64,000 nt of DNA from Plasmodiophora brassicae (GCA_036867785.1 CP145425.1:310001-374000); one strand, 5' to 3'. Counted from the stretch's first letter, positions 18,163-56,920 are shown. A program made the numbers and translations. The notes: a model not told the origin generated them from the sequence alone.

Positions 18163-19680
<1,518 letters not shown>

Positions 19681-31274: not shown

Positions 31275-31437
31275 CGCTCTCTGCACAAATAATATTTACA
31301 GAGTTTAACCTCACTTTAGCCACATGCAATTGCACCTGTGTGACTAAATGTCGCGTTATATGAAGCCGCGCTAACACCGCGGGCCTTTCCCACGGGCCAC
31401 GGCATCTCACGGCCTTTAACTAACGTACTCACTTTTC

Positions 31438-31690
31438 ATGGGCCCAAGCGACGCCGTGGGCGGCGATGGGAAGTCACACATGGCCGTGGTTCGCCCGTCC
31501 CTGTTCGAGCAGATAGCTGCTCCCAAGCTACAAACGAGCGACCGACCAGCGATCATCCTGTTCATGGATCAGCTCAAGACGTACAACTCCAAGATCATGG
31601 AGAAGATTGCTCTGGGCGAGAACATCGCCCCGATTGACATCAAAAACATGCTAGACGAGGGCATGCTCGCCACCATCTTCAAGTCGATTT
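31438..31690 (+). mobile_element. possible retrotransposon gag-like fragment, truncated by a fold-back
   Basis: ORF (IAAPKLQTSDRPAIILFMDQLKTY...) ends abruptly in its own inverted copy. The gag-like identity is a weak impression. Confidence 0.35.
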
Positions 31691-31756
31691 TGCAGATGGT
31701 GGCGAGCATGCCCTCGTCGAGCATGTTTTTGATGCCAATCGGGGCGATGTTCTCGC
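31616..31756. repeat. inverted repeat / hairpin 1
   Basis: Arms 31616-31678 and 31694-31756 (63 bp, 2 mismatches) with a 15-nt quasi-palindromic centre. Confidence 0.97.
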
Positions 31757-32331
31757 TCACGGGCGGACGTCGACGCACGATCGAGGATCAACTCTTATCG
31801 TGATCGATTGTCAGATGGCCTCCGGTGATAAAAGGTCTCGACATCGGGTCGCGAATGAGGACAATCTCAAGGTGATGGTGAAGTACATTGAGGTCAATGC
31901 GGGCATATCCCACCAGGCGGCGGCGGATCGTTTTCGCGTTGATCGATCGCGAGAAAATCAGACGGTTGTGTACAGAGTCGGACGCAGCGAGGTCCAAAAA
32001 GGTCGCCAAGGTCGGTTCCAGCTTCTGCCCTACCATTGATGACATGGTCTACGCCTGGCAGCTCCGCGTGGAAAACGACGCTCCTGAACTGAACGACACC
32101 CTGCAAGTTCTACAAGAGAAATCCCTTGAGTTTAGAGGACGAGCGCTGGATGCCTTCAGTGATGACCTTGACGAGAAGACGCTGTCGCGACTGCGATCCT
32201 TCACTGCTTCCAATGGCTGGGTGACACGCTACACTTTCAGGAAAGGCCTCCGCAGTGTGCGCCGCTGTGGGAAACACTAGGCTGTGCCAAATTCAGAAAA
32301 TTCTTGCAGGGATGACGTCATCAGCAATGAC

Positions 32332-33883
32332 CAGGCCTCATTAAAGGTGGAAATTTCCACTTTTCCCACTTTTAACTTAAAAGTGGGAAGAATCTGGACC
32401 TTAAAAGTGGAACTGACGAAATATAGCCTAAAAGTGCCCATTTTTGAGGTGGATTTATCACAACGAGCCCAGCAGGTCGAATTGCTTCGCCTGGAAGATG
32501 CCCTCCAAGGAGAGGTCGAGGAGGTTCTCGCGATACGCGTCCTTCTCCCACTTGAGAATGGAAAAGTCGGACTCGATCGACGTCGTGTTGAGGAGCGCGG
32601 TAGCCAACCCGACACAGAACCGACGCAGAAGCTCGAACCGTCCACCGGCGCGAGGAGCTTGTCGGCCCACGAGGGGTAGACAGCAGAGAGCAGCTTCTTC
32701 AACATCGCGACCTGGTGGTTGGCCGTGTGTCTGTCGAAGTGCGGCATGGCGATCAGAAGGATGTTGTGCAGCACGCCCTTGACGCCGAGACGGACACGCA
32801 AGTCGAAGAACGTCGTCCCGCGGTGACTGCTGCCGTCGAACCCGATCGACATCGTCCAGACATCGTCCGTGGCAAGTAGATCGCCGATCTTCTGGATGGA
32901 GACGCCGACGAGGACACGGACGAACCGGCCGACCATGTTGTCGTTGATGCCGGTCAGCTTGCTGAGGTTGAAGGTGGCGCGCACGGCCTCCATGGCGTTG
33001 GCAGTCTGCCGGAACGACAGGCCGTGCGAGACGAGCTTGATGGCGAGCTTGAACCGATCGACGTTCTTGATGGTGGTCTTGTACGACCCGTCTTCCTGGA
33101 CATTGAACAGGAGCAGAGCGTTGCGCTTCAACTGGGCAATGCCGGCGGGAGATGCTCGAGCGACGGCGATCGCACTCTCGTCCATGTCGTTGTCCAGAGC
33201 GGCCATCTCGTCTTCAGGCCGGAACATGAGCTCGGCGATCACGACCTCGACCGTCTCGCTGCTCATGCTGAACTCCAACACGTCGCCAGTGAGATCCCAA
33301 TAGTTGTGGAGCGTATTGCTGAGAGCGATGCGGCCCTTGAAAAATGCCTTCTTGCCGTCGATGGACTCGTTCTGGTACGCATCCCACAAGTCGGCGTGCT
33401 GATTGGTGAGGTGTTTCATGAAGAGGTCTGTGCGCCACGAGGTGTGGTACTGCGGCCCCTTCCTGGCAGCGCGCTGGCGGCCCACCATGTCGAGTTGGCG
33501 GCCGTGGAACTTGCAGAACAGGCAGATCGTGGAGGTGACGGCGCCGCCCGAGCTTCTTTCGGTGACCTCCATGGCGTATTTCAACGACCACGACTGGTCG
33601 TAGACCATACGAGCCTTCTTCGGGCCCATGATGCCGTGTCAGTCGAAGTGATGGGGTGGCATCGACGTCCGCTTGCTCCAGCACCAATGGGTGGGTCCGT
33701 GGAAGTCCTTATTGGTCCGTATGGAGTCCGGAAGTAGCAACGACGGTCTCTGCTCGGTTGCATGTGCCTCCAATAAGCTCCAGAGACCTGTTTGCGGAAC
33801 TTCCTTAAAAGTGGGAACATTTCGGACCTTAAAAGTGTTAAAAGTGGAAACTATTTATAGATTTCCACCTTTAATGAGGCCTG
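32332..33883 (-). mobile_element. hAT-superfamily DNA transposon (1552 bp, internally deleted)
   Basis: Perfect 23-bp TIRs CAGGCCTCATTAAAGGTGGAAAT (32332-32354 / 33861-33883), 8-bp TSD GCAATGAC (32324-32331 / 33884-33891), and subterminal AAAAGTG repeats at both ends. Confidence 0.95.
32458..33629 (-). pseudogene. hAT-like transposase with internal deletion and frameshift
   Basis: N-terminal CLFC...H...H Zn-finger-like region and catalytic SIGFDGSSH. Near 32655 it jumps to the dimerisation-like tail NTTSIESDFSILKWEKD..R..L.DLSLEGIFQAKQ in another frame. Confidence 0.8.
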
Positions 33884-33949
33884 GCAATGACTGAGTAATC
33901 GCTTCCTCATGGCGGTTCTAGATGTCCCTTCTGATGCGATATTCATCGC

Positions 33950-34192
33950 CGACGAGACCGCTGCCTTGTACCTAACCACGTTGACGAGAACATATGTTTC
34001 CATCAACAACGATAAACGGGGAACAAAACGGCTCAAACACCTTTTAACGGTCACCCTGATCGTTAGTGCTGCCGGGAAGAAACTCCAACTTTAAGTGAAC
34101 GGTCATTGAGCCTTTTTGTTCCCCGTTTATCGTTGTTGATGGAAACATATGATCTCGTCGACGTGGTCCGGTACAAGACAGCGGTCTCGTCG
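33950..34192. repeat. inverted repeat / hairpin 2 (copy of transposase coding sequence)
   Basis: Arms 33950-34036 and 34106-34192 (87 bp, 6 mismatches) with a 69-nt spacer. Both strands translate to DET...RTYVSINNDKRGTK-like peptides. Confidence 0.97.
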
Positions 34193-34649
34193 TGATGGAT
34201 TGTCTTCGAGCGGAATGGGTTTGATTCAGGTGGACGCCAAAGTTCAGGTGAGGAACGCATCAGGGATCGCTATTGCCTTTCGAGTCGTGGAAGGCTTGAC
34301 CGGCTCCGTAGTCTATTTGGCATTCAGCAGCGAATGACAAAGCAGTGGTTGACGAACTTGAAGTGGCTCCTGGGTATGAAGATCAACTTCTGACCATTCC
34401 TAACTCGTCTGTCACCACGATTGGTGAGGCCGGCCACCGCCACGTCTTTAAACTTGGCGAGTTACGTGTTGTCTGAGGGGGAGTTGCCCGCAGAACTGCC
34501 TGTAATGCCTTGTGGTCCCGTTCTTATTGGCCCGTATCTTGTACATGATGTGAATATCGTGGGATAGGATTGCTCCGGGTGAAGGATGCGCCAGACGGTG
34601 GCTCCGTTTGCGGTCCCCAGGCGACGGAGAGCCGTTCCTGTTCCGAGAT

Positions 34650-34678
34650 GGGGGGGGGGGGGGGGGGGGGGGGGGGGG
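34650..34678 (+). repeat. G29 homopolymer
   Basis: 29 consecutive G. Confidence 0.95.
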
Positions 34679-35017
34679 TCGGAGACAGACCCCAAATCGT
34701 TCTTCAAGGAAGTGATCAGCCGCCGCCGATCCATCGCAATCCTGGCATCCAGCGGCCGACAGAAACTGCTGTCGCATGGAATCATCACCTCCAACACCCT
34801 CCGCCCGCGTAACTGCGCCTCCTTCAGCCGGAGCGTGCCGAACAGGATGGGTCCCCTGGCCATTCGAGTTGGGTCTCTGTCTGCTTCGCTCCGCCGACAT
34901 CCGACCTCCGTCCCATCACCAGAACAGCAATACTGATGGGTCGCTCTGGCCATTGATCAGGTCATCACGGGCATATAGCGGCCGGTGCGGCCGCGCATTG
35001 CCGCACCGGTGCGGGTC

Positions 35018-35870
35018 ATGCTGCTGGCGACGGCGTGTGCTGCTGGACGGCCGTTACGCCGAACCGTAAGCCGCTTGCCGATGGCGGCTCCTCGGTGCCA
35101 GCGTCGGCTGTATACGGATCTGGATCTCAGCGACCGCGACAGGAAGCGCTTCCGGTACCTGGCCGGCCGGCTTGGGCAGCGTAGGGGCCGGGAGCCGCTG
35201 AACCGGATGCCGCACAAGGACGTGTACCTGATCGATATCAGCCTTGCGATTGGGTACGCGTTCGACGAGGTCAGCGGGTGGAGGGATTGGGTGCACGGCC
35301 ACCTGCTGCGCGGTCGGTTGTGTGCCTCCGAGAGACGGTGCCCGCGTGTGTCTGACTCGACGCGTGGCAGGCAAGAAGTGCTACCTGCTGCCCGAGGTTG
35401 CTAAAGCGTTCGCCAGGAGCTATCCGGGGCATGCCCTGCCGCACACGTTCGAGGTCCTGCGCTTGAGCGACGATATCATGCAGACGCATCGGTCGCAGCT
35501 CGACACTGTATTCAGCGAGATCGCGTCCGCGCTCGACCTGAAGGGGCGCACCGTCGACGTCATGAGGCCGAAGATGGACCTGTTCATCGAGGCGTTCCTG
35601 TTCGCGCGGTCCTGCGACCCGGCGCAGATCGACCCGGCCGACTTCGAGTCCGGCCTCGTCGTGTTCGCGTCGCACAGCTACAAGACGATCACGAAGATGG
35701 TGGGCAACGTGTTCAAGGCGCGGACCGTCGAGCGGATCCTCCGGCGGCACGGCGTCGCGCGCATGCTGCCCGTCCGCCTCGTGGACAACAACGCCATGTG
35801 GGCCGACGTGCCCCGCGAGTACTTCGAGAGCGTGCCCCCGGCGCCAGCGCGTCGTCTCCTCGACATATAA
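35018..35870 (+). CDS. unknown family member 2 (PIN-like fold inferred), spliced
   Basis: MPHKDVYLIDISLAIGY..EVSGW..H..G|KKCYLLP...DLFIEA...VVFASHS. Same intron position as members 1 and 3. Confidence 0.78.
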
Positions 35871-35974
35871 ACAGTACAGCATCGGGTGTGGAGCGGCAGC
35901 CACCGGGTTGTGTGCCCATGGCGCCGGCTGCGCCCCCTGGACTGCTACATGGGCCGTGCGCGCGCAGAAGTTCG

Positions 35975-36807
35975 ATGCGAGCGCTGACGGCACTGCGTCG
36001 TCGAGCGTTGCTGCCGTGCGCCCTGCAGCGGCCCTATCCTCGACGTGGTAAGCCATGTACGGCGCGCCCCCGTCGACGACGCAGGGCTGACGTTCACTGT
36101 AGTGGTCGCCGTTGCGAGGCGGCCGTACACGCGAACCGTTGATGTGCGCCCCGTCGAACGTGCGGGGCCGTGCCGTACGCTGCTGCCGTTGTCGGTGATG
36201 CCGCACAACTACGTCTACCTCGTCGATTCGACGCTCATCATCGGGTACGCCCGGGACGAATTCCCTGGCTGGAGAGCCTGGGCCGAGGAGCACGTTCGAA
36301 ACGGTGGGAGCAGGCATCTGGCTCCCGGCAAAGGTCTCCTCCGCGTCCTGATGCTGTCCGTTAGGCAGGACGTTCTATGTGCTGCCCCCGATTGTCCCCG
36401 TTGCCACCGTGCATGGCCCTGAGCTGCCTGACGGGTTCGTAGCGCTGCAGATGGCCGATGAGGCGAGCCTGGCAGGGCTACAGGATAAATCCATCGCCGT
36501 CTTCCGGGACGTCGTGGCGGAGCTCGACCTGAAAGGCAGGACGGTGTCGAGAATGGAAGCGTTCACCCGGTTCTACGCCACCGCGCGGGCGTACGTCGAG
36601 GCTTGCGACCGGTCGCAAATCGCTTCGCAGGACCTAGAGCTGCGGCGCGTCATCTTCCTGACCAGCAATTTCGGCGCAGCGTCACGCCTGATGAGCAACC
36701 GGGCCAAGGTCAACACCCTCGAGATGATCCTGTCCCGGTACGACATCGCCGGTCTGCTCAAGCTCCGGTACGTGTCCAACCAGCACTCGTGGCACGACTT
36801 TAACTGA
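35975..36807 (+). CDS. unknown family member 3 (PIN-like fold inferred), spliced
   Basis: MPHNYVYLVDSTLIIGY..EFPGW..H..G|RTFYVLP...LDLKGRTV...VIFLTSN...SWHDF. Confidence 0.78.
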
Positions 36808-36856
36808 ATACACGCCATCCACTGTACAAATGGTAAAGACCCGCGTTCTTGGCGTT

Positions 36857-38125
36857 CTATTCGCTGCCGGCGTCGTTCTCGGCTGGAATGGATTCAACGG
36901 GTGCAGGTTGCTCTAGAAGGTCGTACGGGTCCTTGATGACGCCGAGCACCGGATGGCCCGCCTCGCCAGCCAGCACCTCATCGCTGTCGACAGCATCTGC
37001 GATGTCTCCACCCAAGGGCATACACCGCTGGACGAGACCGCCGGCTTCGTAGAACGCCATCCCTACTGGTACCAGCAAGCGATCCCGCCCATCCTCATCT
37101 AACAACGAACGAGGCCCGTGTAATGCGAACCGACATGTTTACAGTGAATGCTAGGGGTCGGCTCATCGTGTCGCGCGAGGTCGCACTCCCTTGCCAGGTA
37201 CATCATCGTCGCTTTCGTCATCGTCGAAATCACTCTCGTCGTCGTCGTTGTCGTCGTAATCATCGCTGTCGTCGGCGTAATCACTATCATCGCTGTACGC
37301 ATCGTCATCCGAATCGTTGTCGTCGTCGTCGTCGTCGTCGGCACCAGCACGGAAGTCGTCGTCATCGTCATCGTCGCTACTTTCAAGTTCTTCTTCATCA
37401 GTGAACCCCTCGTCCTCATCGTCGTCGACTCTCAGGTCGTCGTCATCGCTGCCGGACTCGAATATGTCGTCGGAATCATCCGCTTCGTCAGCAGCGGCCC
37501 CCTGAAGCGGATCGCCAGCGCCACTGTCCTTCTCGATACTGGAATCGGCATGCTGAGCCATAGGACCCCTCTTTGCGCTAGCAAGAAGCGCCAGCCTGGA
37601 TCCAGATGGTACTGCACCCGCTCCGAGAAGGCCGCCTTTCCTCACCAGACAGCCAGGCTGGTTCAGTTTGCTGGCGTACGGGATCGGACCTTCAATCGGG
37701 ATCGGGTTGTACCTCTTGAACAGCGACGACGCGTGCAGATCGGTAAGGAACTTGTCGAAAGGCGGACGCGGGTACGAGTTCCACGACATCAGCACCTGAT
37801 CGACAAGCTCCTCCCGCCACTTGATATCCGTCAGCTTCTTCTTGTGCCCCTTCTTCTTCACCTCCTTGAATTTGACCACGCCGAGCGTCTCGCTCAGCAT
37901 CTTGTAGACCTGCGCCTTCTTCGGCTTCTTCGTGACTGCACCAGCACATCAGCGGGCGACAGCCTGTCCCGACAAAGGGCGCTACCTACTGCCGGGGATA
38001 TCCAGATGCACGTGCAGTTTGTTCATCGTCTTGCCGTCGATGGGCGGCCAGTGCTTCGGCCCGCGTATATGCGACAGGTACTCGAGCACGAAGTTCCGCA
38101 CGATCACCTTGCTGGGTCGCACCAT
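36857..38125 (-). CDS. hypothetical protein: unknown N-terminal domain plus long Asp/Glu-rich tract, spliced
   Basis: MVRPSKVIVRNFVLEYLSHIRGPKHWPP..., an acidic run of about 90 aa, and GT-AG introns near 37940-37990 and 37150-37200. Confidence 0.7.
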
Positions 38126-38324
38126 TGTGCCGCACGACGCCTGCCGCTGCTGGTGGTGGTGGTGGTGATGGCCGTGTGGCGGCGGCGACCCGCACTCCGC
38201 GACACGATGCAGCTCGTGCGCGTCAAGCAGCGGGGGGAGGGGGCGCGTTCCGCGCGGTGTAACGTAAGGTCCGCGCGCGCGACGCAGTCGCTCTCGTGCG
38301 GCGCTGCATCGACAGCAACAGGGG

Positions 38325-38747
38325 ATGACTCCGCCGAGCAAGCATGTGGTCATGACGTACTCGATGGAGTTCCTGGCGTTGATCCGGGAGCCCGACTACT
38401 GGAAGCCGACCTGGAAACGGTGCCTGAACCTGCACAGCCGGTATAACATACCGCACATGTCGAAGAAGCCGGGCATGCGCGACCTGTTTGACTTCTACGA
38501 GCACATGCGCCTGGCGCATCGGACGTGGATCCAGCCGGACCCGAGGCTGAGGAAGGAGCTGATTGTGGACTGGAACGAATCGCTGGTCGACTATATACTG
38601 TCCAAGTTCAACGTCGACCCGCCGCCCACCATCGAGAAAGTCTGCGTCGACTTCAAGAAGTCCAAAGAGTTTCTCGAGGCGGACGCGGCGTTCAGAAAAC
38701 GAGAAATGGAGGAGCGCCTGGCACTGTTCAAGGACGAGGAGCTCTAG
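38325..38747 (+). CDS. hypothetical protein, paralogue of the N-terminal domain of the divergent neighbour
   Basis: 140-aa intronless ORF MTPPSKHVV...IREPDYWKP...KKP...WNESLVDYIL. Confidence 0.75.
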   Translation: MTPPSKHVVMTYSMEFLALIREPDYWKPTWKRCLNLHSRYNIPHMSKKPGMRDLFDFYEHMRLAHRTWIQPDPRLRKELIVDWNESLVDYILSKFNVDPPPTIEKVCVDFKKSKEFLEADAAFRKREMEERLALFKDEEL

Positions 38748-38840
38748 ACTGCTAAACCATATACAACCCACGCCGCACTAGTAACAAGGAACCGGTTGTG
38801 CAATGAGCACTGAGGAACAGCTGTAATTATGCTGGCGGCT

Positions 38841-40345
38841 TCAAATAAGGTCGGCAACGTTCATAGGCATCTCGTCGATCTGGGTACCGTAGTACTGTTC
38901 GATGTCGCGCAGTATGCGAACGTCATCGTTCTTGACAAAGTTGATGGCGACGCCCTTGCGCCCGAAACGCCCGGACCGCCCGATACGGTGAATGTACAAC
39001 TCACGGTTCGTGGGCAGGTCGTAGTTGATCACCAGCGACACTTGCTGGACGTCGATACCGCGGCCGAAGATGTCGGTGGCGATCAGGACGCGGCTCTTGC
39101 CCGACCTGAACTCGTTCATGATCGCGTCACGTTCCGACTGGGGCATCTCGCTGTGCATAGCGGAGACGGTGAAATTGGCTTCTCGCATCTTCTCGGTGAG
39201 CCAATCGACCTTGCGTCGGGTGTTGCAGAAGATGACAGCCTGGGCAGAACAACGGTTCACTTTCGCCGTTAACAGCAGACCACAGCGAGAACCGGGAACG
39301 CACCTGCGTGATCGTTAACGTATCGTACAGGTCGCAGAGCGTGTCGAACTTCCACTCCTCCTTCTCAACCGCGACGAAGAACTGCTTGATACCTTCGAGC
39401 GTCAACTCATCGCGCTTTACCAGGATACGGACGGGGTTCGACATGAACTTGGTGGTCATCTCGAGGATCTCATGCGGCAGCGTGGCACTGATCAGAACGA
39501 CCTGCGTGGTCGGCGGCAGGTAACGATAAATATCGTATATCTGGTCCTTGAACCCCTGAGAAAGCATCTCGTCTGCTTCGTCGATGACCAGCATACGAAT
39601 GTGACGAGTCTCAAGAGCGCGCCTGCCGGGATACCATTAAGAGGCGTTGAAGCGCGGGACCCCGACACGTGCCCTACCGCTTAATCATGTCGTAGACACG
39701 GCCGGGCGTTCCAGAAACGGCATGCACGCCGGATTCGAGCGCGCGAATATCGTCGCCGACAGACTTTCCTCCAATGCACGCATGGCACCGGGCGTTCATG
39801 TAGTCGCCCAGCGCCAGCATTACGTTTCGCGACTGTTCGGCAAGTTCACGCGTTGGCGACAGAACCAAGGCTTGCAGGTCCTGCATGAAACTGTCATTAC
39901 TCGAATTCGACGCTCGACGAGGGCTTCGTATCAAACCTTCTTCTTCGTGTCGATCATTTGCAGGATTCCAACGCAGAAAATCGTCGTCTTGCCCGTTCCT
40001 GACTGCGACTGGGCAATGACATCACGACCTGGACAACGTCTGTCAGCGAACGAGGACGCAGACGATGCGCGAACGCATAATCGGCACCTGATAAGATCGG
40101 GACAATCGCCCGCTGTTGGATGGCGGATGGCCTTTCGAACCCATAATTGTAGATCCCACGCAGCAGATCCGGTTTAAGGTCCATATCGTCGAACGACGTC
40201 ACGATATCGATCTTGCCGGACGTCTCGTACAGCTCCTCGTTGTGATCTACCCGTCAACGTCAGCATGCGGCGCCGCATGCGCGCCAATCCGAACCCGTCT
40301 ATCCCCACCTGGCTTGGCTCGCTTCGTAGCGCTGCCCGACGCCAT
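38841..40345 (-). CDS. EIF4A3: DEAD-box helicase eIF4A-III (exon junction complex core)
   Basis: [68 protein letters not shown] and terminal [12 protein letters not shown]. Confidence 0.95.
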
Positions 40346-40572
40346 CGCATCGCCATCGTTCGTGCTGGCGTCGGCGCGGTGCTTGGACGTGTGCAGGCCG
40401 TCGGGGCTACGATCGCGTCGTCGTGATCCACTCATTGCCCCAATGCCCGCCACCGTCCACGGACTCCGTGAACTACCGACGGACCGACAGCCAACGACCG
40501 ACCACCGTTGGCCAACTGGCCATCGACTATCGAGCACTGTACCCGTCTTCGTACACACACACACAGACACCT

Positions 40573-41526: not shown

Positions 41527-41771
41527 GCGAGGTTTCCGCTATTTCTGGCGGGTCCCGCACTGTGCGCTAAGTGCAGCTTGCCAAAGCCAGCACTACAAAA
41601 GGGTGCGGTGAGATTACCGTAATTGCCGTACAGTTGCGATCCCGCTTCGCCTGGTTATTACTAGGGCGGGCCGCGGGTCGTCTATATCTGTGGGATGCGG
41701 TACACGGGTCGATCATTGGAGTCAATCGTCGTTGGCGTGGTGGTGTGCGGGTCGGCAGACCCCGCGGGCCA

Positions 41772-43418: not shown

Positions 43419-43549
43419 GGCCGGACGCGCGCGGTCGGGTCCCCTCATTCACCGTTTATATAGACGCAAAGGATGGAACCCGAATGCCATCGGCACACTC
43501 ATTGCGGCGGCGACCGGGCATACACCTGCGAGCAACACACACACACGGG

Positions 43550-44205: not shown

Positions 44206-44514
44206 CGCGGGTCGGTATCGGGCGCGGATCGGACGAACACGGCTCTGGCGTATCGGTCGGAGACGGCTCCTCCCCCCGCCCGGGGGGACACGCGCGCGCG
44301 CACGTCCACCCCCGCCACAATCGACCGGAGCCCATCGCTACCTGAAGCGGCTACGCGCAGGGGTCCCGTACCCGCCTCTTCGGGATGGTTTCCGAGGCCT
44401 GGCAAGAGGCGGGGCCTCTGCGAGTGCACAGGAACGACGGCAGCAACAGCACCGCCGACACACACAGACGGTGTTGGTTGCGCCGCCGCCAGGCAGGCCA
44501 GCGGGCGGGCGCCC

Positions 44515-47498: not shown

Positions 47499-47525
47499 AT
47501 GTATATAGGATTATCGTCTCCGGGG

Positions 47526-50500
47526 CTAGGCCGTGTCGGGCGTCAGCGATGACGACCGCGAGTCGGCGACGGGATGCTGCTGCTGGGTGTCGGGCGACGA
47601 CGCATAGGTCGTTATACGCGACACGGCGCCCGTTTGGTCGGTGGACGCCTCGGAGCCGCCGGTATCCGACCTGATCTTCTGCTGTATGCGCCTGCTGATG
47701 CTGATGCTGTTCCGCGTCGGGTCGTTGCGGTGGAATTCGTGGCGGCGGTGCTGGACGACGTTCTGGATGCGCTTGACGAAGTCGGGGTGATCCTCCAGCA
47801 TCGTGGCGAAGTGCGCCTTGTCCAGGCGGACGAGATGGGTCGGTTCGATGGCGATGATCGAGGCGGAGCGGACGCCCCCGCTCAGCATGGCCGCTTCGCC
47901 GAAGCACGTCCCCGGGTGCAGGAACTTGACCGGGACGATCGCGCCGGGCAGCACCAATCCGACGAGGCCCTTCAGGATGAAGTACACGCTGTCGCCAATG
48001 TCGCCGTTCTATGGCAGATCGTCAATGGCGGGACGGGGACAGGCAGGGCGAGGGCGGGCGCCACCTGGAAGATGAACTGCTCGGCGGGTATGGACACGAA
48101 CGTCATGTGGCCGACGATGGGTCGCAGCATGCTGGCGGACACCTTCTCGAACAGCGCCGAGGTCATCAGGATCTTCCCGCAGATCTCCATCATGACGTCC
48201 TGGCGCAGGCACAGGGGCAGGTCGCCCAGGGCCACCTCCGGATCCACGCCCCGGTTCGACTGGTCCTGCGCGGGGGGAACATCGCGTTACGCATCCGGAC
48301 GCGACCAGCGCTGACAGGTTAGCGGACCTCGTACTGGAAGAACCGGAACGCGTCCGTTCGCAGCTCGACCGGCACGTTCAGCGTCGACAGGATCGCGTCC
48401 GTCCGTCGGACGCGGTGGTGGAAGTCGTTATCGGCCACGTCGATGCGGGCGATCAGGTTGCCGACGCGGCCTTCGTTCATTGGCGGGATCAGCCACGGGA
48501 GAGCGGTGCGTTGCAGCAGACGCACCGATGACGTAGCCGACGACGAACAGGCCGGCGATGCTGGTTGCGATGGTGTAGACGAACTCCAGGGTGGTCGTCG
48601 GGGCCGCCAGGGACCCGATCCGGATCAGCACCTTCAGCGAGAAGAACAGGCCGTGGGAGTAACGCGACCCGGGCGTCGAATGCGACAGGTTAAAGGGGAT
48701 GGCCCAGGACGTCGCGTCGTTGCGCGCCCCGTACCCGTCGAACGTGTTGACGATCAGATACCTGTGTTCGCGTTAGCTGTACTGTCGTTCAGCAACACCG
48801 GACCGGGACAGGAGGACCCGCAGGTGGTGACGTGGACGACGGCGAGGAAATGCGCCGTCATCTTCATCAGCTGGGCCAGGCTGGCCTCGAAGTACACGTG
48901 GAGCTGCTGGTCCAGCAGGGCGTTCAGCCTGGACACCCAGACGAGCTTGTTGATGCGCATCCAGGGGTTGCTGGGCATCGCCACGCCGGCCGGGACGCAC
49001 CCGATCAGGTACCACCAGAACTGTCGGGATCGCAAGAACCGTCGCTCGATGTTCCTCGGCGCCACCTCCAGCGTCCCGTTCGGCAGGGAGACGCATAACC
49101 GAAACCGCAGGATTAAATCGACGAACATGATCGCGTTGCTGACCGTGTCGAATGCGATTCCGCCAGGCGTCACTAGGCTTTCGTTCGTCGACAGGAGCAC
49201 CGACAGGCGCACCGACATGGCCACGATGACAAGCAGGACGATCGTTTCCCATCTAGACAGGTTTGCTAAGGATTCGGAACTTGTCAGATGGGGGCGGACG
49301 CCCAACCTTTGCCACATCGGGTGCAGCGGATGTATCGTGAACGTCTTCGCGATGTGCCACGTCTTCTGCGCCCTTTGCCGCCACGTCCTCCTCCTGCCGC
49401 GCACCGTGAACCAAACCGAATACCGGATCTTTCGCCATCGCGCTCGAGCCTTCTTCGCCTGTGATGCGCTCGCATGAGCGCGGGCCGGTGGCCGCACCAG
49501 CATTGGTGACGACGAACCTCAGCGTCGCCACGTTCGACCTGGTCGATTTCAATGCGCCTGTTCTGGTCCGTCTGCGCCTGGATACGCGCTTTGAACGCGC
49601 CCAGGACCGCGTTCGTGTCGTGCGCGTACAGGCGCGCCAGCGTCTGCCATTTGTCGTGCGACAGGCAGTACAACTCGCAAGGGCTCAGCGCCTGGCCGAC
49701 GTCAATCCACCTGGCCGATTGGCATCGTCACGGGCCGTACCTGCGCGGTCACGATGTACCGCTCGCCAGGAAGGATGGCCACCTCGCCAAAGACGGTCTG
49801 GCCGGTGAGGATGCTCGTGCGCGTGTACCGTCCCGCACTGCTGCAGTACAGCAGGGAGACACGCCCGGACTTCATGAAGAACAGGTTCTGGGCCTTGGCG
49901 TCCTGCGTGCAGATGACCTCGTCGGCGACCTGTCGCGCACCCGGGTTCACAGCGCCGCCGTGATGAACGCTGCCAGAGCGCTTTCGTACCGTGTAGCGCT
50001 GCCGCAGGCTGCTGACGAAGCAGCGCTTGGCGGCGGGCGACATGCTGTTCAGGAACGGCATGCTGTCGAACATGTCCTTCAGGATGTGCATGACGACCAG
50101 CGTCTTCAGGTTGTGTGGCAGGCGGTCGATCTCCGATCCGGAGATCAGCGAGTTGTGCTTCGACCCTGAGGCAGACCCGCGTTGAGCGCAGGACTATGCG
50201 CACAGGTCAGGTGTTCGCCGTACACAGGTACCGGTAGTGGTTCTGGATGCGCAATTGCAGGCCCTTCGATATCTTATGCTGCCTGCCAGACGCGGTCGGG
50301 GATCAGCGCAGCGCATGCCAGTCAGGTCAGCCAGGACCCACTTCAGGAATCGTTGGCAGTAGTGCCGTTTCTGGTCGTGGACTACCCAGGCGTCGTCCAG
50401 CGCGTTCCCGGCAATGTCGATGGACCCGACCTGGGCAGCAGGCGGTTACAACGGCGATGACGACGACGACGGCGACGGTTTCGAACGTGGCCTACCACGT

Positions 50501-51886
50501 AAGCCAGGAGCATGATTGATATGAGGGAGACGGCCAGCGTGAAGATAATCTCGAGGTTGGTAACTGGTTGCGGCGTTTCCGCCTGGGAGAACATCAGCCC
50601 GACGGCGAAGTACATCGCGGACAGGTATTGCTGCAGGAGGCTGGATTCGAGCAGTTCGCGACTCGGAAGCCAGTTGTTCTCCCCGAAACCCTGTCATCGA
50701 ATCAGGTCCTAAATAGGAACGCGCGCTTTCACGTACACGCACCTCGATCCACCCGAGCCCGAACCAGATGCACGCGACGTAATGGCAGAGCAGGACGGCG
50801 TAGATGATGAGCTTCGTGACGCGTACGAGCGACAGGTTCACGTCGCGCGAGTGCTCCAGGTCGCGAATCAGCAGGACGCAATGGAACACGGACATCAGCT
50901 TATTGGCGCCCAGGATCGGCGACGTGTGCGGCAACCACAACCGAATAATGTCCTACGGGCCACTCAGGCCGCGCATCACGAGCTCTAACGACGACGGGCG
51001 TTTACCATGGGCACGGACGCGACCAGGTCGATGGCAAAGCTGCCGTTCAGGTAATGTTTTCGAATGCGGGCCGGGTCGCGGATCAGGCGGCCTTCGTCCA
51101 TGAACCCCTGGGGAACGGTGCCGCTGCGTGTGAGGGATCGAGCGGTGGCACGGCCCTTGTAGCAGTCGACGGTGCGTACCGTGCGGAACTTGCGGACAAT
51201 GTCCAGGATGAAGAACGCGTCGATGACGATGGAGACGGCCGTCAGCAGGACGCTATCCGTCTCGAATGCTGGGCGACACCGTTATATAGGGACGCCAGGC
51301 GGTGCGGATCGTGACCGACCGGTCTCGAACGGCACGGCGTACACGGCGAACGTGATCATGGCCGTCAGTATCGTCAACCACACGGTGACGAACGGCGAAT
51401 CCGGTGCGAATATAACGGGCCTGTCTCAAGTGTAAACCAACAGAAGAGTTATCGTATCGGCGGGTACCCGTGCAGGGCCTCCTCGCTCTCCACAACGACG
51501 TCTTCGTCGTCATCGTCGCCGTCGTCGCTTTTAGGGTTGACGATCACGACATGAGGCTGCTGGTTGCTGCCGTAGGCAGCGGATTCCGATTCGCGGACGA
51601 CGGAGAGGCGCTTCGAGATGGTCGTTGACGACGACGCTCGCGAGTGCGCCGACTCGAACAAGGAGACACGCAGGCGCGACGCAATCATCGATACGAGCGA
51701 CTGGTGGCGGGGGCGCCCATAGATCTCGTCCCCGTCCCGCACCGAAACGCCTTTGCTCTCGTCGGACACCAACTTGTTGTCCGAATGCTGCTCGTCCGAC
51801 GTCGACGTCAACTCCTCCTTCACCGCTCCCCACGCCGTCGGCAATGGCATGGGCGCCACGACATACTTGCCTCGCGTCGTCGTCAT
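47526..51886 (-). CDS. cyclic-nucleotide-gated-type cation channel with two tandem [6TM + C-linker + CNBD] repeats
   Basis: Two S5 signatures (HYVAC / HVTTC), two pore loops (FSQAETPQP / IRIGSLAAP) and two CNBDs (FGEVAIL / FGEAAML..RSAS). Many introns. Confidence 0.85.
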
Positions 51887-52002
51887 CGTCCCATTTGACG
51901 TGTACACTAATCGGCAAACACGCGGGTCGAATGGTGTACTGTCGTTAACTTGTGCAAGTTTGCTGCTGTATGCATTGGGAATGGGGTCGCCCACCAACAG
52001 GC

Positions 52003-52879
52003 TCAGTGAGCTCCTGGGACAGGCGCCACCGTGTCGCCTCCTGGGCCGTGCGACTCCTGGTACCGTTGACGCGATGGCGAGAACGGGATCGGGACCCGGG
52101 CGGGTACCTCGTCATATCGGTGGCTTTTCCAGAGCAGCGCCTCCGAGCGCGATCGCTGCAACTCTTCCGCCGCTTTCCTGGACTCGCACCGGAGCTGTTC
52201 CGACCGCGTCGTTTTCGGCTTCGAGTGCTTCGTCGACTTGCCCCGTATCGACAGGTTCCTCTGCATCGCCTTGTGCCGCTGACCTTCCAGCCACGTCTTG
52301 TGCGCCGCGTTCTCGATGATGCTCGCGAACGACACCTCCTCTGGATCTCGGCTGCACGGCTTCCCGAACGTGATGTCTCGCAGGTGACTCGGCACCGACG
52401 GCTTCTTTGCGTTCGCGTTGCCCGCCGCGATGCGGATTCGGTACTCGTGTGTCCTTCGAAACTGTGTAATCTGCCCGACGGCTGTGGGTCAGCGCGGCGA
52501 AAACGGTTCGCCGCTCGCGAGATGCCGCACCTGTTGGCTCGTGATCGCACCATGGTCGGCAGAGGCGATGTTGAAGCGGACAAAGTCCGACCCGGGCAAC
52601 GATGACGGATTAGGAACATGGCTCTTCCATTCGGAGATCACTGCGACCGGTATGAGCCACGAAGACAATGAGGGTGCGCGCGCGCCACGTACGTTTGCCA
52701 GCTGTGAGAGCGTCACGATCGCCGTGGCAGCCAAACGTCGTCTCGGGCGGCGGCAGCTTGCAGGTGGGGCGGCGAGCGCGTCCCAGCACCGGATGGACCA
52801 GCAGCGGGTTATGCAGGAAGTTCTTCTGTCGCGGTAGGAACGCCGTATCCATCGCATACGACTCGTGCGGCGGTGCCAT
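52003..52879 (-). CDS. CFAP77: CFAP77 (DUF4483)-like flagellar protein, spliced
   Basis: NPLLVHPVLGRARRPTCKLPPPETTFG, SEW...DFVRFNIAS and ITFGKP resemble CFAP77 motifs. Confidence 0.65.
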
Positions 52880-52946
52880 CGCGTCGCCGACGGACGGGAT
52901 GAAAGCGGCGGCGATCGCGTCAGCGTACCCCCACCCTCGAATCGGG

Positions 52947-54793
52947 TTATCGTGTATTGTTGACTCGTAGGCGGGATCGGATCTTGTCGCGAAGGTCCTC
53001 AATGATGTCGACCGGATCAGGCCCGATAAGTTGCTCGGACAGATGAGGGATGATCGACGACATCATGATCCGGTAGGATTTGGGGACCAGGCGGAAGACG
53101 GCCGATTCCAGGAACGCCGTTAACGTCGTCGGAATCGATCCGACTGGAGTCACATGCAGATCCCGAATCGAAGGCGGATTGTCGAGTACGACATCGACCC
53201 AGCTGTCAGTGTCGTCCATGCTCGCCTTCAACCTGACGCCTTCGAACCGAACCTTCGCCGATTGCAGGCCGATCTGTCGCGTGACGAACCCGTAGGCCAT
53301 TCGACAGTCGAAAAGGATGGCGGGGGAGAGCGGCACCCGGCTTGCGATCGTGTACTCGATGGTCGTCAAGTACTCGTCGTTCCCCAGCGTCTCGTTCATA
53401 TGGACGGTCAGCTGCGACTCGTCGGCAATGTCGACTGCGGCGAGGCCCACCGCGAAGAGTCGCCAGCTGGCGTTGTCGTCGGGCGGCAGGGCGCTGCGCA
53501 GCACCGATTCGACCACGGACGGGTTCAGGACGAACTTGTGGATGGCGTGCTCGAGGAACGTGGCCCAGTGGTCGCGCAGTGCGCCCAGGCTGTGCGTCGA
53601 CAGGTTCAAGTCGCGCAGTTTTGCTTCCGGCTGCGTGCGTGTCCCTCCAGGCGACGCTACCCGATGCTCGTACCGGATCCTGGCGGTCTCCGTGACGTTG
53701 CTCATCTCGATGATGGCGGACAGCGTGTCCAGACGTTGCTGATCGGTGATGGTCGACGGTGTTGGCATTGGCAACGCCTTGCCGACCCGCTGAACGCGGG
53801 GCTTCAGGATCCGGGCGCGTAACGATCGCGCACCGGACAGGAACGTTTCGACTGCGTTCGCCATCAGGCGAACGATGGCCAGCCAGCCTCGTCTGGATCC
53901 GTTAATCGCGCTGAACAGGATCTTTTGCAGGCGACGTTTCAGGGTGCCTAGGTGGCGTAAGGCGAGCTTGATGACGGCAGCAGAACGGCGCTTAACGAGG
54001 GAGACCGAGGGTGACTCTGACGACGGCGTCGTGAAGGCGAACAGCGAAGACATCATGTTGCACAGGAACTCCCAGAGCGATACGATCCAGAGCCAGAGCC
54101 GTGGTGACTGTGGCTTCTGCTCGAAGGACATGGCATTGGGTACCGGTTCCGTCCCGCCGTCGATGTCGAAATCGAAGACGCTGAGGTGGTCGACGTGGAC
54201 CACGAAGTTCCCGACCGTGCTGGACCGAGGCAGGAATACGCTGATATCGACAGCAATGCGCGCGTTCGAGATGAGGATGCCTGTCAGTGGGATCTTGGGT
54301 GCCATTGCAATCACCTCGACCCTCAACTGCGTCATGTTCGCCTGGACTCGTCGATTCAGGCCTCGTTACAGAGGGGAAACAATGATGAAGTCACCTGGAC
54401 GTTGATGTCGTACCACGTGCCAGGTGCTGAGGAACCGTCGTTCTCGAATTCGGTGCCATCTCGGAAGCGGGTGATGGTTGCAAATGGTTTGGAGGTTGCC
54501 GGGTCGAGGGAGGAGAAGACAGCAGATCTCTCCCGCACGTGAAGGAACGGGGACGACGTTGATGCGCGCTTCGAAAGAACAATGTTGATGGCGCGAACGC
54601 ACTGTTTTGTCATGTAGGGCGATGTAAGAAGGCTGAAGACTGATCCTGCCAGTTGTGTGAAACCGGACGCCTGATGATACGGGTCGGCAGACGGCGATGG
54701 AGACGGGTCGATTGGCGTCCCGGGCATCGTCCACGAAACGCCCCCGTGAGGTAGGCACCAGAGAAGAAGAAGAAGGGCCTGTACGACGTGCAT
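52947..54793 (-). CDS. secreted/membrane hypothetical protein (signal peptide)
   Basis: MHVVQALLLLLWCLPHGGVSW signal-like start, one probable intron near 54340-54390, and a 462-codon downstream open frame. Confidence 0.65.
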
Positions 54794-54849
54794 GTCGGAT
54801 TGGAAATGCCTAGTGATGAGGGCTATCTTCGGAACAGCATCGAATTGAT

Positions 54850-55626
54850 GTACCTTGACTTGAACACGGATAGTGTCTGGAGTGTATTGTCGCCAGTGTC
54901 TGACGGCGTCACGAGTGTCTGGGTCTCGGTGTTCGGTGGCCGATTCGCGATCCGGTGCCTGGTCGTCTTCGACCAAGTATGCGTCGAGTTACTGCTCGGC
55001 CGTCTAGTCGTAATCCGGTGCTGGGTCATCAACGTCCTGTTGGTCCGACGCCGAGTCGTATGTGGGTGTCCGGTCGTCGATCGATCTGTGCTCGGGCGCC
55101 GATTCGTGTCCAGATGACGGGTCGTCGACAGAGGCGCCGACGTCTTGGTGCTCGAGCACCCAGTCCGGCACCGGGTCGTCGAGCGATGCGCTGTCTTGGT
55201 CCTCGTACGTCAATTCGTGATCCAGCCTCTGGTTGTTGTCCTATGCGCTGTCTTGGTATTCGGACGCGGAGCCGTGATCCAGTGCCTGGTCGCTGACCTG
55301 AGCGTCCGGGCGCCAAGTTGTGAACCGGCGCCGGGTCGTCGAGCGATGCGCCATCTTGTTGCTTGGGAGCAGAGACGTCGTCCTCGGTCGGGTTGTTGTC
55401 GTCTTGCTGCTCGGTCGTCGTGACGTAATTGGGTGATCTCTGGTCATCGACCGATATGCCGTCTTGTTGGTCGGGCGCCGAGTCGTTATCAGGTACCGGG
55501 CCGACGTCGCGTTGCGGAGGTGCTGGTCCCAGAGGGTGGGCGTTAGGTATAACCTTGCTGTACATCAAGGTACCAAGCCCGAGCTGGTCATAACCGCCAC
55601 TGGCCTCGCCGTAATTGCCGTCGGCC
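54850..55626 (-). pseudogene. 3' part of the alginate-lyase-like gene: conserved C-terminal motif plus Asp-rich repeat tail with stops
   Basis: ADGNYGEASGGYDQLGLGTLMY, then degenerate ~18-aa repeats (QQDxASxDDPAPDYDS) with in-frame TAG/TAA and a frameshift. Confidence 0.75.
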
Positions 55627-55969
55627 GCGAAGGGCGGCCGCGTGGGCTCCCACCCCATGTTTGGACCGACTCGTTTGAATTCGAGAATAATTCAAAAGCT
55701 GGCCTGCAACGCGCTCGCGCGTTGCAGGCCAGTAACACACGCGAAGAGAGCTACCCTGAGTTTACGGAGGCGCGCTGCCCTACTCCAATATTGAACAGCT
55801 GACAACGTCGACATCTGACTATATGTGCAGCCACGATGATGATGGGACGAATGTACTATCGATCGCATAAGAGCGCAGGGATATCACTATGACTGCTTGC
55901 ACTTGCCGCGCGCTCGTGGTTTCTTGGGCTGACCTGCCTTTTTTGTCGGTTTGGAAATGCCTGATCGCA

Positions 55970-56600
55970 TAGCGTCATGGACGGTGCCGTTGACGGCCAA
56001 GGCCCAAGGCAGCAATAGGAGACGCAGGAGATATCAGACGAGCCATAATCGCGACAGAGCCACCTGTGGTACAGCGATCGGGTGAATATAGTAGGCGATG
56101 CACCCGTCGGTGACGCGAGAAGCCTTTCGGGACCGGGAAACAACTGTGGAAGGGTGGAGACGTCCAGCTGAAGGCGTAACACACCAAATGGCAGGCAAAG
56201 GCCGTTCAAACGTCGTTGCCTGCACACAACCGCCAGCGACTTCGGCTGACAACGACACGAAACCGCGTGACTGACTTTGGGCGAACTGCTGCCACTCCAA
56301 TTGCAGTTCCCCTTTCCCACGCCCTGAACCACTATCGCTACAATCATCTTCTGCAGAACAGCGGGCGTGTGCAAGTGGCGGCCATGCTCCCGCGCTGGTC
56401 CCATTAGCGAGGCGCTCCAGTCTCCACCCTTCCACCGTTGTTTCCCGGTCCCGAAAGGCTTCTCGCGTCACCGACGGGTGCATCGCCTACTTCACCCGAT
56501 CGCAGTACCACAGGTGGCTCTGTCGCGATTATGGCTCGTCTGATACCTCCTGCGTCTCCTATTGCTGCCTTGGCCGTCAACGGCACCGTCCATGACGCTA
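55970..56600. repeat. inverted repeat / hairpin 3
   Basis: Arms 55970-56161 and 56420-56600 (~185 bp; two small indels and a few substitutions) with a 258-nt spacer. Confidence 0.97.
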
Positions 56601-56629
56601 CCGCGCAGTTTGAGTAAACGTCCACGGCA

Positions 56630-56920
56630 ACCGTCGGCTTCGGCAGACGGACGTTAATCCGTGTTGTGGAGACAACCGTCGTCCGTCGTGTCGTCTCCTG
56701 ACATTTTAACCGTCTTTCACCGTCCTTAGCCGTCTGGCGTCGCATCGTCTGTCTTTCGTGCCGCTTTGTGGTCGGAACCAGAAACAAAGCGGCACGAAAG
56801 ACAGACGATGCGACGACAGACGGCTACGGACGGTGAAAGACGGTTAAAATGTCAGGAGACGACACGACGGACGACGATTGTCTCTACAACACGGATTAAC
56901 CGTCTGCCGAAGCCGACGGT
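56630..56920. repeat. inverted repeat / hairpin 4
   Basis: Arms 56630-56769 and 56784-56920 (~138 bp; 4 substitutions and a 3-nt indel) with a 14-nt loop. Confidence 0.98.

Follow-up and report, generated by a model that had tools for sequence, protein, structure and literature searches.

In yeast, one study of break-repair products (PMC11724301) describes two fragments of a single locus brought together in inverted orientation, with median sizes of 50-150 bp, gaps of 2-119 bp, and a median microhomology of 6 bp. In that study, the inversions arise within ssDNA pieces that are subsequently captured by NHEJ, and most local fold-backs measure ~5-34 bp. The tracts of classical snap-back SD-MMEJ (PMC5728401) are far shorter than the arms described below. 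In Plasmodiophora brassicae itself, a small-RNA report (PMC13547706) lists 234 miRNA and 78,890 siRNA loci and describes abundant phased 21-nt small RNAs, chiefly intergenic and then TE-derived, along with two AGOs, the Drosha-like RNase III PbDRL, no Dicer, and no RdRP. The legend to its Fig. 2G states that a palindromic region yields small RNAs.

We compared these systems with four long inverted repeats in a P. brassicae window (the whole stretch of DNA analyzed, 64,000 nucleotides). A repeat search of the entire window returned five inverted pairs; two of these belong to IR3 as pieces of it, leaving four repeats. Arms measure 70-192 nt with 91-99% complementarity, and self-BLASTN likewise recovered the repeats where a sequence-only reading of the window had placed them:

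IR1: arms 31613-31682 and 31690-31759; 70 nt, 94%, 7 nt between them
IR2: arms 33950-34044 and 34098-34192; 95 nt, 91%, 53 nt between them
IR3: 55970-56600, unstranded; arms 55970-56161 and 56420-56600 (192 and 181 nt), spacer of 258 nt, non-coding
IR4: 56630-56920, unstranded; arms 56630-56769 and 56784-56920 (~140 nt), loop of 14 nt, non-coding

The four repeats are real, non-random, and far beyond chance expectation. When the window was dinucleotide-shuffled 20 times, the top inverted self-match never exceeded 38.1 bits, compared with 178-416 bits for IR1-IR4. Folding z-scores were −23.4 and −21.0 for the two strands of IR1, −20.6 for IR2, and −57.3 for the stretch containing IR3 and IR4. 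Self-BLASTN of the whole window gave six inverted matches: IR1-IR4, a 37-nt match at 8667-8706, and a 34-nt match at 55699-55732. It revealed no other long inverted repeat in the 64 kb and no cross-similarity among the four. The sequence-only observation of four mutually unrelated hairpins is confirmed. Substitutions between arms number 4/70 in IR1, 8/95 in IR2, 3/181 in IR3, and 4/~137 in IR4; arm alignment additionally places a 7-nt and a 4-nt indel in IR3 and one 3-nt indel in IR4.

IR1 and IR2 lie in island 1, where 3.7 kb of dead repeat fragments separate two tandem paralogous genes. The island is a nest composed of a 5′ piece of a repeat that we call G, a pogo/Tigger-like pseudogene, and a hAT-like element:

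31297-31687, plus strand: 5′ fragment of G, an uncharacterized multicopy ORF repeat, from paralogous contigs in public runs
31613-31682, plus strand: IR1 left arm, original orientation, inside the G ORF and colinear with the paralogue
31690-31759, plus strand: IR1 right arm, inverted copy of the left arm
31770-32331, plus strand: N-terminal DNA-binding part of the pogo/Tigger-like transposase pseudogene, frameshifted, with a stop at 32278-32280
32332-33883, minus strand: nested hAT-like element with 23-nt perfect terminal inverted repeats and an 8-bp target-site duplication
33892-34105, plus strand: continuation of the pogo-like pseudogene (previously read as a "DDE" frame), ORF 33891-34094, colinear with the paralogue up to 34102
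33950-34044, plus strand: IR2 left arm, original orientation
34098-34192, plus strand: IR2 right arm, inverted copy missing from the paralogous contig
34193-34470, unstranded: further fragment of a repeated family, nature unassigned, from run-contig matches

The G ORF begins at the ATG at 31480 and continues into IR1; when contigs were compared with the window, loose ends appeared before 31297 in runs X4 and X9. A Pfam search assigned its product to no family, and a search of 1.84 billion proteins gave just two matches, the window's own ORF and its sole relative, P0002, which is 81% identical and named as a P. brassicae protein. Neither match is a gag protein, so the proposed "gag-like" identity of the IR1 frame is unsupported. 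The AlphaFold model of the product (pLDDT 51.8) was unusable. Homology of the pogo-like pseudogene to its paralogue begins near 31770, at a loose end in the run contigs. Its N-terminal part (31770-32331) matches Pfam HTH_Tnp_Tc5 at E 0.0074 and 16.7 bits, under the curated cut-off of 22.2, and carries an atlas feature score of 0.94, with 19/30 matches in the HTH_Tnp_Tc5 set. The continuation at 33891-34094, which we take to resemble the first-Asp region of DDE_1, had no Pfam match, DDE_1 included, even at E 10, and its homologue search was empty. The "DDE-transposase" label of the IR2 frame thus finds no domain match in the stretch itself, although the frame just upstream is pogo/Tc5-like. Further downstream, the stretch 34221-34469 recurs in X2 record 7 and X4 record 14, where it shows 36 differences and is bounded on either side by loose ends.

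The nested hAT-like element is flanked by GCAATGAC, an 8-bp duplication at 32324-32331 and 33884-33891. Its 450-aa minus-strand ORF exits through the left end with no stop of its own inside the element; the ORF has no Pfam match and scores 0.93 in the atlas to a DUF4371/ZBED-RNase-like cluster. Variant and internally deleted copies of the element are present among the run contigs. The ordinary duplication and clean ends make it look like a simple later or earlier insertion.

Paralogous contigs from four public runs (X2, X4, X8, and X9) were compared with island 1, covering both IR1 and IR2. G paralogue contigs in all four runs match 31442-31683 with ~25 differences and are unlike the window afterwards, which identifies the IR1 left arm as original and places the break at the turn. 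For IR2, a pogo-like paralogous contig in three of the four runs (X2, X4, and X8) covers 33986-34102 with ~11 differences; it contains the inner left arm and the loop to 34102, then joins 34102 to 34358 and lacks the right arm. As the paralogous contigs either part from the window at the turn or contain no right arm, the hairpin form of both repeats is locus-specific in the four runs. Each of the two left arms sits in an open frame ending at its turn, in agreement with the sequence-only placement of these hairpins where frames break off.

Substitutions within the arms indicate which template was copied. Four paralogue differences fall within the IR1 arm: at 31639 and 31646 a window-specific base is common to both arms, whereas at 31637 and 31653 the right arm has the paralogue base and the left arm alone differs. 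The same two patterns recur in IR2, with shared window-specific bases at 34022, 34025, and 34035 and the paralogue base in the right arm at 34038. Because the right arms bear substitutions specific to the adjacent left arms, the copying took place in cis, and the arms have aged since. The IR1 turn is centered on the self-complementary TCGA at 31684-31687. The inner arm ends of IR2 have decayed and its turn can no longer be read, leaving IR1 as the one repeat with a legible candidate for microhomology at the turn.

Target-site duplications were sought as direct repeats of at least 6 nt within ±4 nt of either end, with the hAT-like element as a control. None was found at IR1-IR4, where the best candidates measured 3, 3, 4, and 5 nt, while the control in the same island returned its perfect 8-nt duplication. 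Island 1 contains two fragments that lose colinearity with their paralogues and are followed by the reverse complement of the preceding 70-95 nt. The order at both is a turn of ~7 or 53 nt, the inverted arm, and then unrelated DNA. A further opposite-strand junction of the pogo-like family occurs elsewhere in the genome in three of the four runs.

Judged by these junctions, IR1 and IR2 look like fold-back duplications that were templated locally, at the points where the fragments are truncated, rather than transposon ends or assembly errors. Their arms are internal sequence, as the sequence-only reading had recognized in denying that they are element termini. That reading had also suggested a recurrent fold-back or template-switch process acting on TEs, which fits IR1 and IR2 in their colinearity to the turn, cis substitutions, lack of target-site duplication, and the further junction. 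On balance, we lean towards hairpins that are fixed, locus-specific fold-back duplications from break repair. Within TE-derived DNA, a 3′ end that is free or stalled would pair back on its own or the sister strand at a short inverted microhomology, be extended by tens to ~200 nt, and yield a product joined or captured by end joining. Such a route would amount to fold-back or microhomology-mediated template-switch repair, like the "templated inverted insertions" at double-strand breaks, and would make a transposase unnecessary. The yeast product sizes match arms of 70-192 nt and turns of 7-53 nt, whereas the far shorter SD-MMEJ tracts count against this route. We infer the mechanism from end products, no ancestral (pre-event) allele having been seen. 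IR3 and IR4 are provisionally assigned to the same process because they share the form of IR1 and IR2 and have no target-site duplication.

For IR3 and IR4, and these two alone, we consider it possible, though somewhat unlikely, that they are non-autonomous fold-back transposons or MITEs inserted side by side in the spacer. At 631 and 291 bp they are small, non-coding, and wholly inverted-repeat, and they fill 922 of the ~1265 intergenic bases of island 2. The hAT-like element with its duplication attests that transposons do insert into this genome. Some DNA transposons carry subterminal transposase-binding repeats, and IR4 is rich in CCGTC/GACGG motifs that resemble them; this likeness favors a mobile-element origin for IR4. 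The 258-nt spacer of IR3 exceeds the gaps reported in yeast, which counts against a fold-back origin. Against insertion by transposition, the best duplications of 4 and 5 nt require shifted ends, the arms begin with no recognizable transposon terminus, and self-BLASTN detected no second copy or fragment of either repeat in the 64-kb window. Two metagenome scans gave 0 matches, which is weak evidence because the collection may contain no DNA of this organism. Neither repeat has a Pfam or Rfam match, and a Pfam search found no transposon protein in island 2, which counts as an insertion island solely through the share of it that IR3 and IR4 occupy. The possibility of ordinary multicopy MITEs with target-site duplications, which the sequence-only reading had named as a refutation, does not hold for IR1 and IR2; at IR3 and IR4, the absence of duplications bears on that half of the description only.

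A reading that concerns function, and is for that reason compatible with a fold-back origin, is that the repeats are hairpin-RNA loci (cf. Mu killer and Drosophila hpRNAs) whose transcripts are diced to 21-nt siRNAs that silence the parent repeats in trans. We regard this as tentative and rather doubtful. Perfect stems are predicted by folding on either strand, and the reported small-RNA repertoire of P. brassicae, with two AGOs and a Drosha-like enzyme (PMC13547706), would suit it. Although plausible, the idea has a precedent, since the same source already ascribes small RNAs to a palindromic region. Its original Dicer premise needs correction, as this source reports a Drosha-like RNase III in an organism with neither Dicer nor RdRP. 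The one direct RNA observation comes from run X9, which is RNA, given its three GT..AG intron joints; its contig record 27 (2465 nt) extends from 31448 into the hAT-like element, joining 31606 to 31753 so that the hairpin is skipped. This joint is absent from the DNA-type runs X2 and X4 and is just what would result if reverse transcriptase jumped over a folded stem; it could equally be a genomic palindrome deletion in that isolate, between the imperfect direct repeats TTGCTC/TCGCTC. A paralogous copy of G occurs in both RNA runs and still matches the arms exactly over stretches of 21 nt or more, making targeting in trans feasible. However, the arms have drifted apart, to 94% in IR1 and 91% in IR2, and show no compensating changes; in so compact a genome, transcription of the island may be no more than read-through. 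Should read-through transcribe them, the repeats would each yield a long, perfectly paired dsRNA stem, a possible substrate of the Drosha-like RNase III. A bolder extension, which we hold to be quite improbable, is that, in a eukaryote with neither RdRP nor Dicer, fold-back duplication of TE fragments in break repair is the regular origin of dsRNA precursors for TE-directed 21-nt siRNAs, with islands acting as a hairpin "memory" processed by PbDRL. If so, the four hairpins would be examples and the hairpin-skipped X9 contig the trace of a folded transcript.

Creation by a transposase, through aberrant or "alternative" transposition or abortive post-excision gap repair as in maize Ac/Ds composite insertions, seems very unlikely. 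IR2 does lie within a DNA-transposon pseudogene with a hAT-like element nested beside it, but the arms are internal rather than terminal, a downstream search for a second terminus of either the pogo-like or the G element was negative, IR1 sits in a repeat of unassigned class, and the hAT-like element has its ordinary duplication and clean ends.

Run contigs also bear on the assembly. All of IR1 is contained in X4 record 10 (625 nt; 31439-32063), which has 0 differences from the window. For IR2, X2 record 6 (33991-34282) crosses the loop and the right arm, and X4 record 12 (33808-34020) and record 13 (34122-34439) likewise show 0 differences; IR1 and IR2 are, on this evidence, not assembly errors. 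X4 possibly derives from the same isolate as the assembly, and its support may not be independent. DNA-type runs from several studies contain 0.91-0.96 of the island's sampled words. Long reads are known to yield palindromic chimeras, and the read check covered IR1 and IR2, but the chance that the repeats are assembly or sequencing artefacts such as fold-back chimeric reads is close to negligible, and for IR1 and IR2 largely refuted, given arms that differ by substitutions (at IR1 and IR2 following paralogue states), short-read-derived contigs from other runs that hold IR1 intact and IR2 in pieces, and at least half of the island's sampled words in 20 runs of 9 studies.

Returning to fold-back duplication, the closest described products are templated inverted insertions. 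In both, an inverted copy adjoins its own template across a short turn, arms span tens to ~150 bp, there is no target duplication, unrelated DNA is joined to the product, and fragile or repeated DNA serves as the donor. The structures here differ in being old and fixed in the germ line of a protist, with arms up to 192 nt, one 258-nt spacer, and microhomology readable at IR1 (TCGA) alone. MITEs and fold-back transposons resemble IR3 and IR4 as short, non-coding, hairpin-forming sequences in intergenic spacers, whereas IR1-IR4 lack target-site duplications and IR1 and IR2 have paralogues with no hairpin, contradicting a multicopy element. Mu killer and the Ac/Ds composite (PMC3440606; bioRxiv 10.1101/2020.01.07.897926) are also natural inverted duplications of a partial transposase gene, transcribable from flanking promoters; theirs include element termini, kilobase arms, and demonstrated siRNAs and silencing, while the arms here measure 70-95 nt, are internal, and come from copies already dead. 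Drosophila hpRNA loci (PMC10317233, PMC10292708) and the P. brassicae palindromic region (PMC13547706) use long genomic inverted repeats as the dsRNA source in organisms with no RdRP, a role that IR1-IR4 would share; membership there requires small RNAs from the stem, and IR1-IR4 are candidates. IR1-IR4 might feed small-RNA defence.

An inverted-repeat search of the whole window returned five inverted pairs, corresponding to four long inverted repeats (IR1 to IR4), with IR3 recovered as two collinear pieces. IR1 and IR2 lie in island 1, and IR3 and IR4 in island 2.

Inverted repeats of the window (arms from the inverted-repeat search, differences between arms from global alignment)
IR1: arms 31613-31682 and 31690-31759; 70 nt, 94% identity; 4 substitutions in 70 nt
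IR2: arms 33950-34044 and 34098-34192; 95 nt, 91% identity; 8 substitutions in 95 nt, inner ends decayed
IR3: arms 55970-56161 and 56420-56600, the two collinear pieces taken together; 3 substitutions, a 7-nt indel and a 4-nt indel
IR4: arms 56653-56769 and 56784-56900 (56630-56920 by self-BLASTN); 4 substitutions and one 3-nt indel

As the sequence-only reading had proposed, four mutually unrelated long inverted repeats are physically present, with the repeat search, self-BLASTN, shuffling and folding in agreement. Self-BLASTN of the whole window detected no cross-similarity among the four, which scored 178-416 bits, versus a best inverted self-match of at most 38.1 bits in every one of the 20 dinucleotide shuffles. 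The predicted stems gave folding z-scores of -23.4 and -21.0 for IR1 (two strands), -20.6 for IR2, and -57.3 for the stretch containing IR3 and IR4. The accompanying claim, that ordinary genes contain no such hairpins, also held: self-BLASTN found only two other inverted matches in the 64 kb, and the sole one among ordinary genes, a GC-rich 37-nt repeat at 8667-8706, is far shorter than IR1 to IR4. The other, a GC-rich, 34-nt near-perfect palindrome (55699-55732), lies on the left margin of island 2, immediately outside an ORF at 55029-55691. The G+C content of the window is about 60%. Rfam returned no matches across 31000-57500, and a Pfam search of 21 ORFs returned only a weak HTH_Tnp_Tc5 match and Alginate_lyase, the latter in a neighbouring gene. 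Among the genes, a single ORF at 18289-19674 comprises six tandem 231-bp units of polyubiquitin, with 77 codons per unit instead of the usual 76. Rhizaria are marked by an additional residue between ubiquitin monomers, and the 77-codon unit thus fits the rhizarian Plasmodiophora brassicae.

To place IR1 and IR2 in their surroundings, contigs from four public sequencing runs (X2, X4, X8 and X9) were compared with 30300-36000 at a likeness of at least 80%; results refer to the pieces listed by that comparison. X8 and X9 are RNA, as both contain the GT..AG joint 35311>35370 (a contig passing straight from the first position to the second) and X9 alone contains 30483>30540 and 30741>30801. X2 and X4 behave as DNA, showing none of the three intron joints among the pieces listed. 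These three introns measure 56-59 nt and belong to the surroundings of island 1 (~31275-34960), a nest occupying one spacer of a tandem paralogous gene family (30564-31274, 35232-35870 and ~35988-36422) that matches no known family. The two flanking ORFs, 30564-31274 and 35232-35870, share 35% identity (E 1e-24).

Features of island 1
from ~31297: G, an uncharacterised multicopy repeat whose ORF runs from the ATG at 31480 into IR1
from ~31770: frameshifted pogo/Tigger-like pseudogene, from a weak Pfam HTH_Tnp_Tc5 match and Atlas features
32332-33883: nested hAT-like element; perfect terminal inverted repeats (23 nt); perfect target duplication (8 bp), GCAATGAC
33892-34105: continuation of the pogo-like frame
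34193-34470: fragment of another repeat family, from contig comparison, followed by a poly-G run

Two family labels given to these frames from sequence alone were not borne out. The G ORF, formerly called gag-like, has no Pfam family and only two matches in 1.84 billion proteins, one being the window's own ORF and the other an 81%-identical protein (P0002) whose source name is Plasmodiophora brassicae; the structure model of P0002 is unusable (pLDDT 51.8). G is nonetheless a repeat, with a ~90%-identical copy in all four runs compared. The frame at 33892-34105, formerly called DDE and which we take to resemble the first-Asp region of DDE_1, gave no DDE_1 match in Pfam even at E 10, and a search for homologues among longer proteins was empty. 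The upstream pogo-like piece matched HTH_Tnp_Tc5 at E 0.0074, under the family cut-off, and scored 0.94 by Atlas features, with 19 of 30 matches in the HTH_Tnp_Tc5 family set; a homologue search of longer proteins was empty for this piece too. The 450-aa ORF of the hAT-like element resembles DUF4371/ZBED-type transposases through Atlas features only (0.93). This element represents a variable multicopy family: X2 and X9 show a variant of its right subterminal region, X2 and X4 a form lacking 18 nt at 33351, and X2 also a copy with an internal deletion, joined at 33330. Its contigs in the RNA run X8 reach depths of 544-811, values that may sum several copies and provide no expression ranking. 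The poly-G run consists of 29 G at 34650-34678, with contigs of the compared runs ending to its left and right (X4 record 15 ends at 34641, and record 16 starts at 34691) and reads cut at 34642-34690. Island 1 repeat families also occur elsewhere in the genome in other rearranged forms, including an X4 contig joining 31332 to 31812.

The DNA contigs support the assembled structures. X4 record 10 (625 nt) is identical and ungapped over 31439-32063, a span that includes the entire IR1, and X2 records 2 and 3 each carry one IR1 arm and break in the loop. For the IR2 region, X4 matches 33808-34020 (record 12) and 34122-34439 (record 13) without a difference, and X2 matches 33991-34282 (record 6) with 12 differences; X4 is possibly the assembly's own isolate. 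Taken together with the substituted arms, these contigs exclude a fold-back chimera for IR1 and IR2, a potential refutation named by the sequence-only reading. Twenty public runs from 9 studies, several labelled plant metagenome, contained half or more of the words sampled from the island. In RNA, X8 record 19 begins shortly past IR1, at 31762, and X8 record 22 begins within the IR2 right arm, at 34142; the X8 and X9 contigs at the locus leave the IR1 stem and the local IR2 left arm and loop uncovered, which counts neither way.

Paralogous contigs reveal which parts of IR1 and IR2 are original. A paralogous G copy (X8 record 18, X9 record 26, and X2 and X4 contigs) matches 31442-31683 with ~25 differences and is unlike the window thereafter, so the IR1 left arm belongs to the original repeat and the break falls at the turn, which is centred on a self-complementary TCGA at 31684-31687. 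For IR2, a paralogous contig (X2, X4, X8) follows 33986-34102, comprising the inner left arm and the loop, and resumes at 34358; the loop is therefore original and the right arm added. The paralogue carries a base other than the window's at four listed positions inside the IR1 arm. At 31639 and 31646 the window's base is common to both arms, while at 31637 and 31653 the right arm has the paralogue's base and the left arm alone differs. Similarly, the window-specific bases at 34022, 34025 and 34035 of IR2 are common to both arms, and at 34038 the right arm agrees with the paralogue. By this mismatch pattern, the right arms of IR1 and IR2 are copies of their own neighbouring left arms in the same element copy, with substitutions in both arms since. 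This agrees with the earlier description of these hairpins as inverted copies of the adjacent frames, placed where the frames break off.

IR1 and IR2 share one layout: source sequence runs up to a point, its last 70-95 nt return in reverse complement beyond a turn of 7 or 53 nt, and foreign DNA follows. A free 3' end undergoing fold-back priming or a microhomology-mediated template switch would yield this layout, and we infer such repair as the mechanism. In yeast, break-repair products include inverted pairs of pieces from a single locus, with median sizes of 50-150 bp, gaps of 2-20 or 30-119 bp and a median microhomology of 6 bp, arising within displaced ssDNA and captured by NHEJ (PMC11724301). 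Those dimensions fit IR1, IR2 and IR4, whereas the 258-nt spacer of IR3 is longer; classical snap-back SD-MMEJ involves tracts shorter than the arms found here (PMC5728401). Elsewhere in the genome, an opposite-strand joint connects pogo-like sequence near 32002-32005 with 33983-33986 (X2, X4, X8), and inverted junctions in this family are hence not unique to the island 1 locus. The proposal of a recurrent fold-back mechanism acting on transposons is consistent with this joint and with the IR1 and IR2 turns.

A MITE or fold-back-transposon origin is conceivable for IR3 and IR4 and, in our estimate, rather unlikely. The two repeats are 29 nt apart and make up 922 of the ~1265 bases separating a repeat-rich ORF from an alginate-lyase-like gene. 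They contain no coding recognisable by Pfam and no Rfam family; a homologue search with an ORF across their arms was empty, and their core words gave 0 matches each in two metagenome scans of a collection that may contain no DNA of this organism. CCGTC/GACGG motifs are frequent in IR4, and we take them to resemble the binding sites that lie subterminally in some DNA transposons. Against such an origin, neither IR3 nor IR4 has a target duplication or a second copy in the window. Within ±4 nt of the ends, the best direct repeats were 3, 3, 4 and 5 nt for IR1, IR2, IR3 and IR4, and the same script recovered the 8-nt duplication of the hAT-like element as a positive control. The downstream sequence showed no further end for either G or the pogo-like element, which rejects internally deleted elements with both ends and agrees with the earlier view that IR1 and IR2 are not element termini. 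Sister-chromatid fusion (breakage-fusion-bridge) appears unlikely, since each of the four centres would require a further break 70-190 nt away. RIP-like mutation was rejected, since arm mismatches mix transitions and transversions.

The hairpins had also been suggested to act as siRNA memory loci processed by Dicer. That premise needs correcting: P. brassicae is reported to have two AGOs and neither Dicer nor RdRP, and a Drosha-like RNase III, PbDRL, makes phased 21-nt sRNAs, mainly of intergenic origin with TEs next (PMC13547706). The same 2026 study calls the origin of siRNA precursors unclear given the lack of RdRP, and its available text contains a single mention of "palindromic", in the legend of Fig. 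2G, for a region that yields small RNAs (PMC13547706). Given 21-nt sRNAs made by PbDRL without Dicer or RdRP, long hairpins are plausible candidate siRNA precursors in this organism, a kind already reported there (PMC13547706). X9 record 27 (2465 nt) starts at 31448 and reaches the hAT-like element through the joint 31606>31753, which removes 146 nt, almost exactly the hairpin, between the imperfect direct repeats TTGCTC/TCGCTC. Since it retains 7 nt of the right arm, this contig derives from a hairpin-bearing form; the joint, not seen among the pieces listed for X2 and X4, was made either by reverse transcriptase jumping over a folded stem or by slippage that deleted this stretch from the DNA of that isolate. 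The paralogous G copy is present in both RNA runs and still matches the arms perfectly over stretches of 21 nt or more, making trans-targeting possible. The fold-back scars may be linked, in a testable way, to this unusual RNAi pathway.

Together, these findings point to real, well-behaved fold-back scars in dead transposons, a new member of a kind already known. The 70-95-nt inverted duplications of IR1 and IR2 sit where dead transposons are truncated in a rhizarian genome, and a preprint places structural variation in such genomes mainly in repeats (bioRxiv 10.64898/2026.10.14.759018). The P. brassicae genome papers, in their accessible portions, mention no inverted repeats, MITEs or hairpins for the nuclear genome. 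Given the lack of RdRP, locus-specific long hairpins from transposon fragments offer a concrete candidate source of siRNA precursors; if silent, they form an ordinary set of repair scars. Whatever their function, the IR1 and IR2 junctions provide a clean instance, occurring in nature, of probable fold-back (template-switch) repair. In origin they come closest to fold-back repair or templated inverted insertion. In possible function, the closest are maize Mu killer and Ac/Ds composite insertions and the hpRNA loci of Drosophila.
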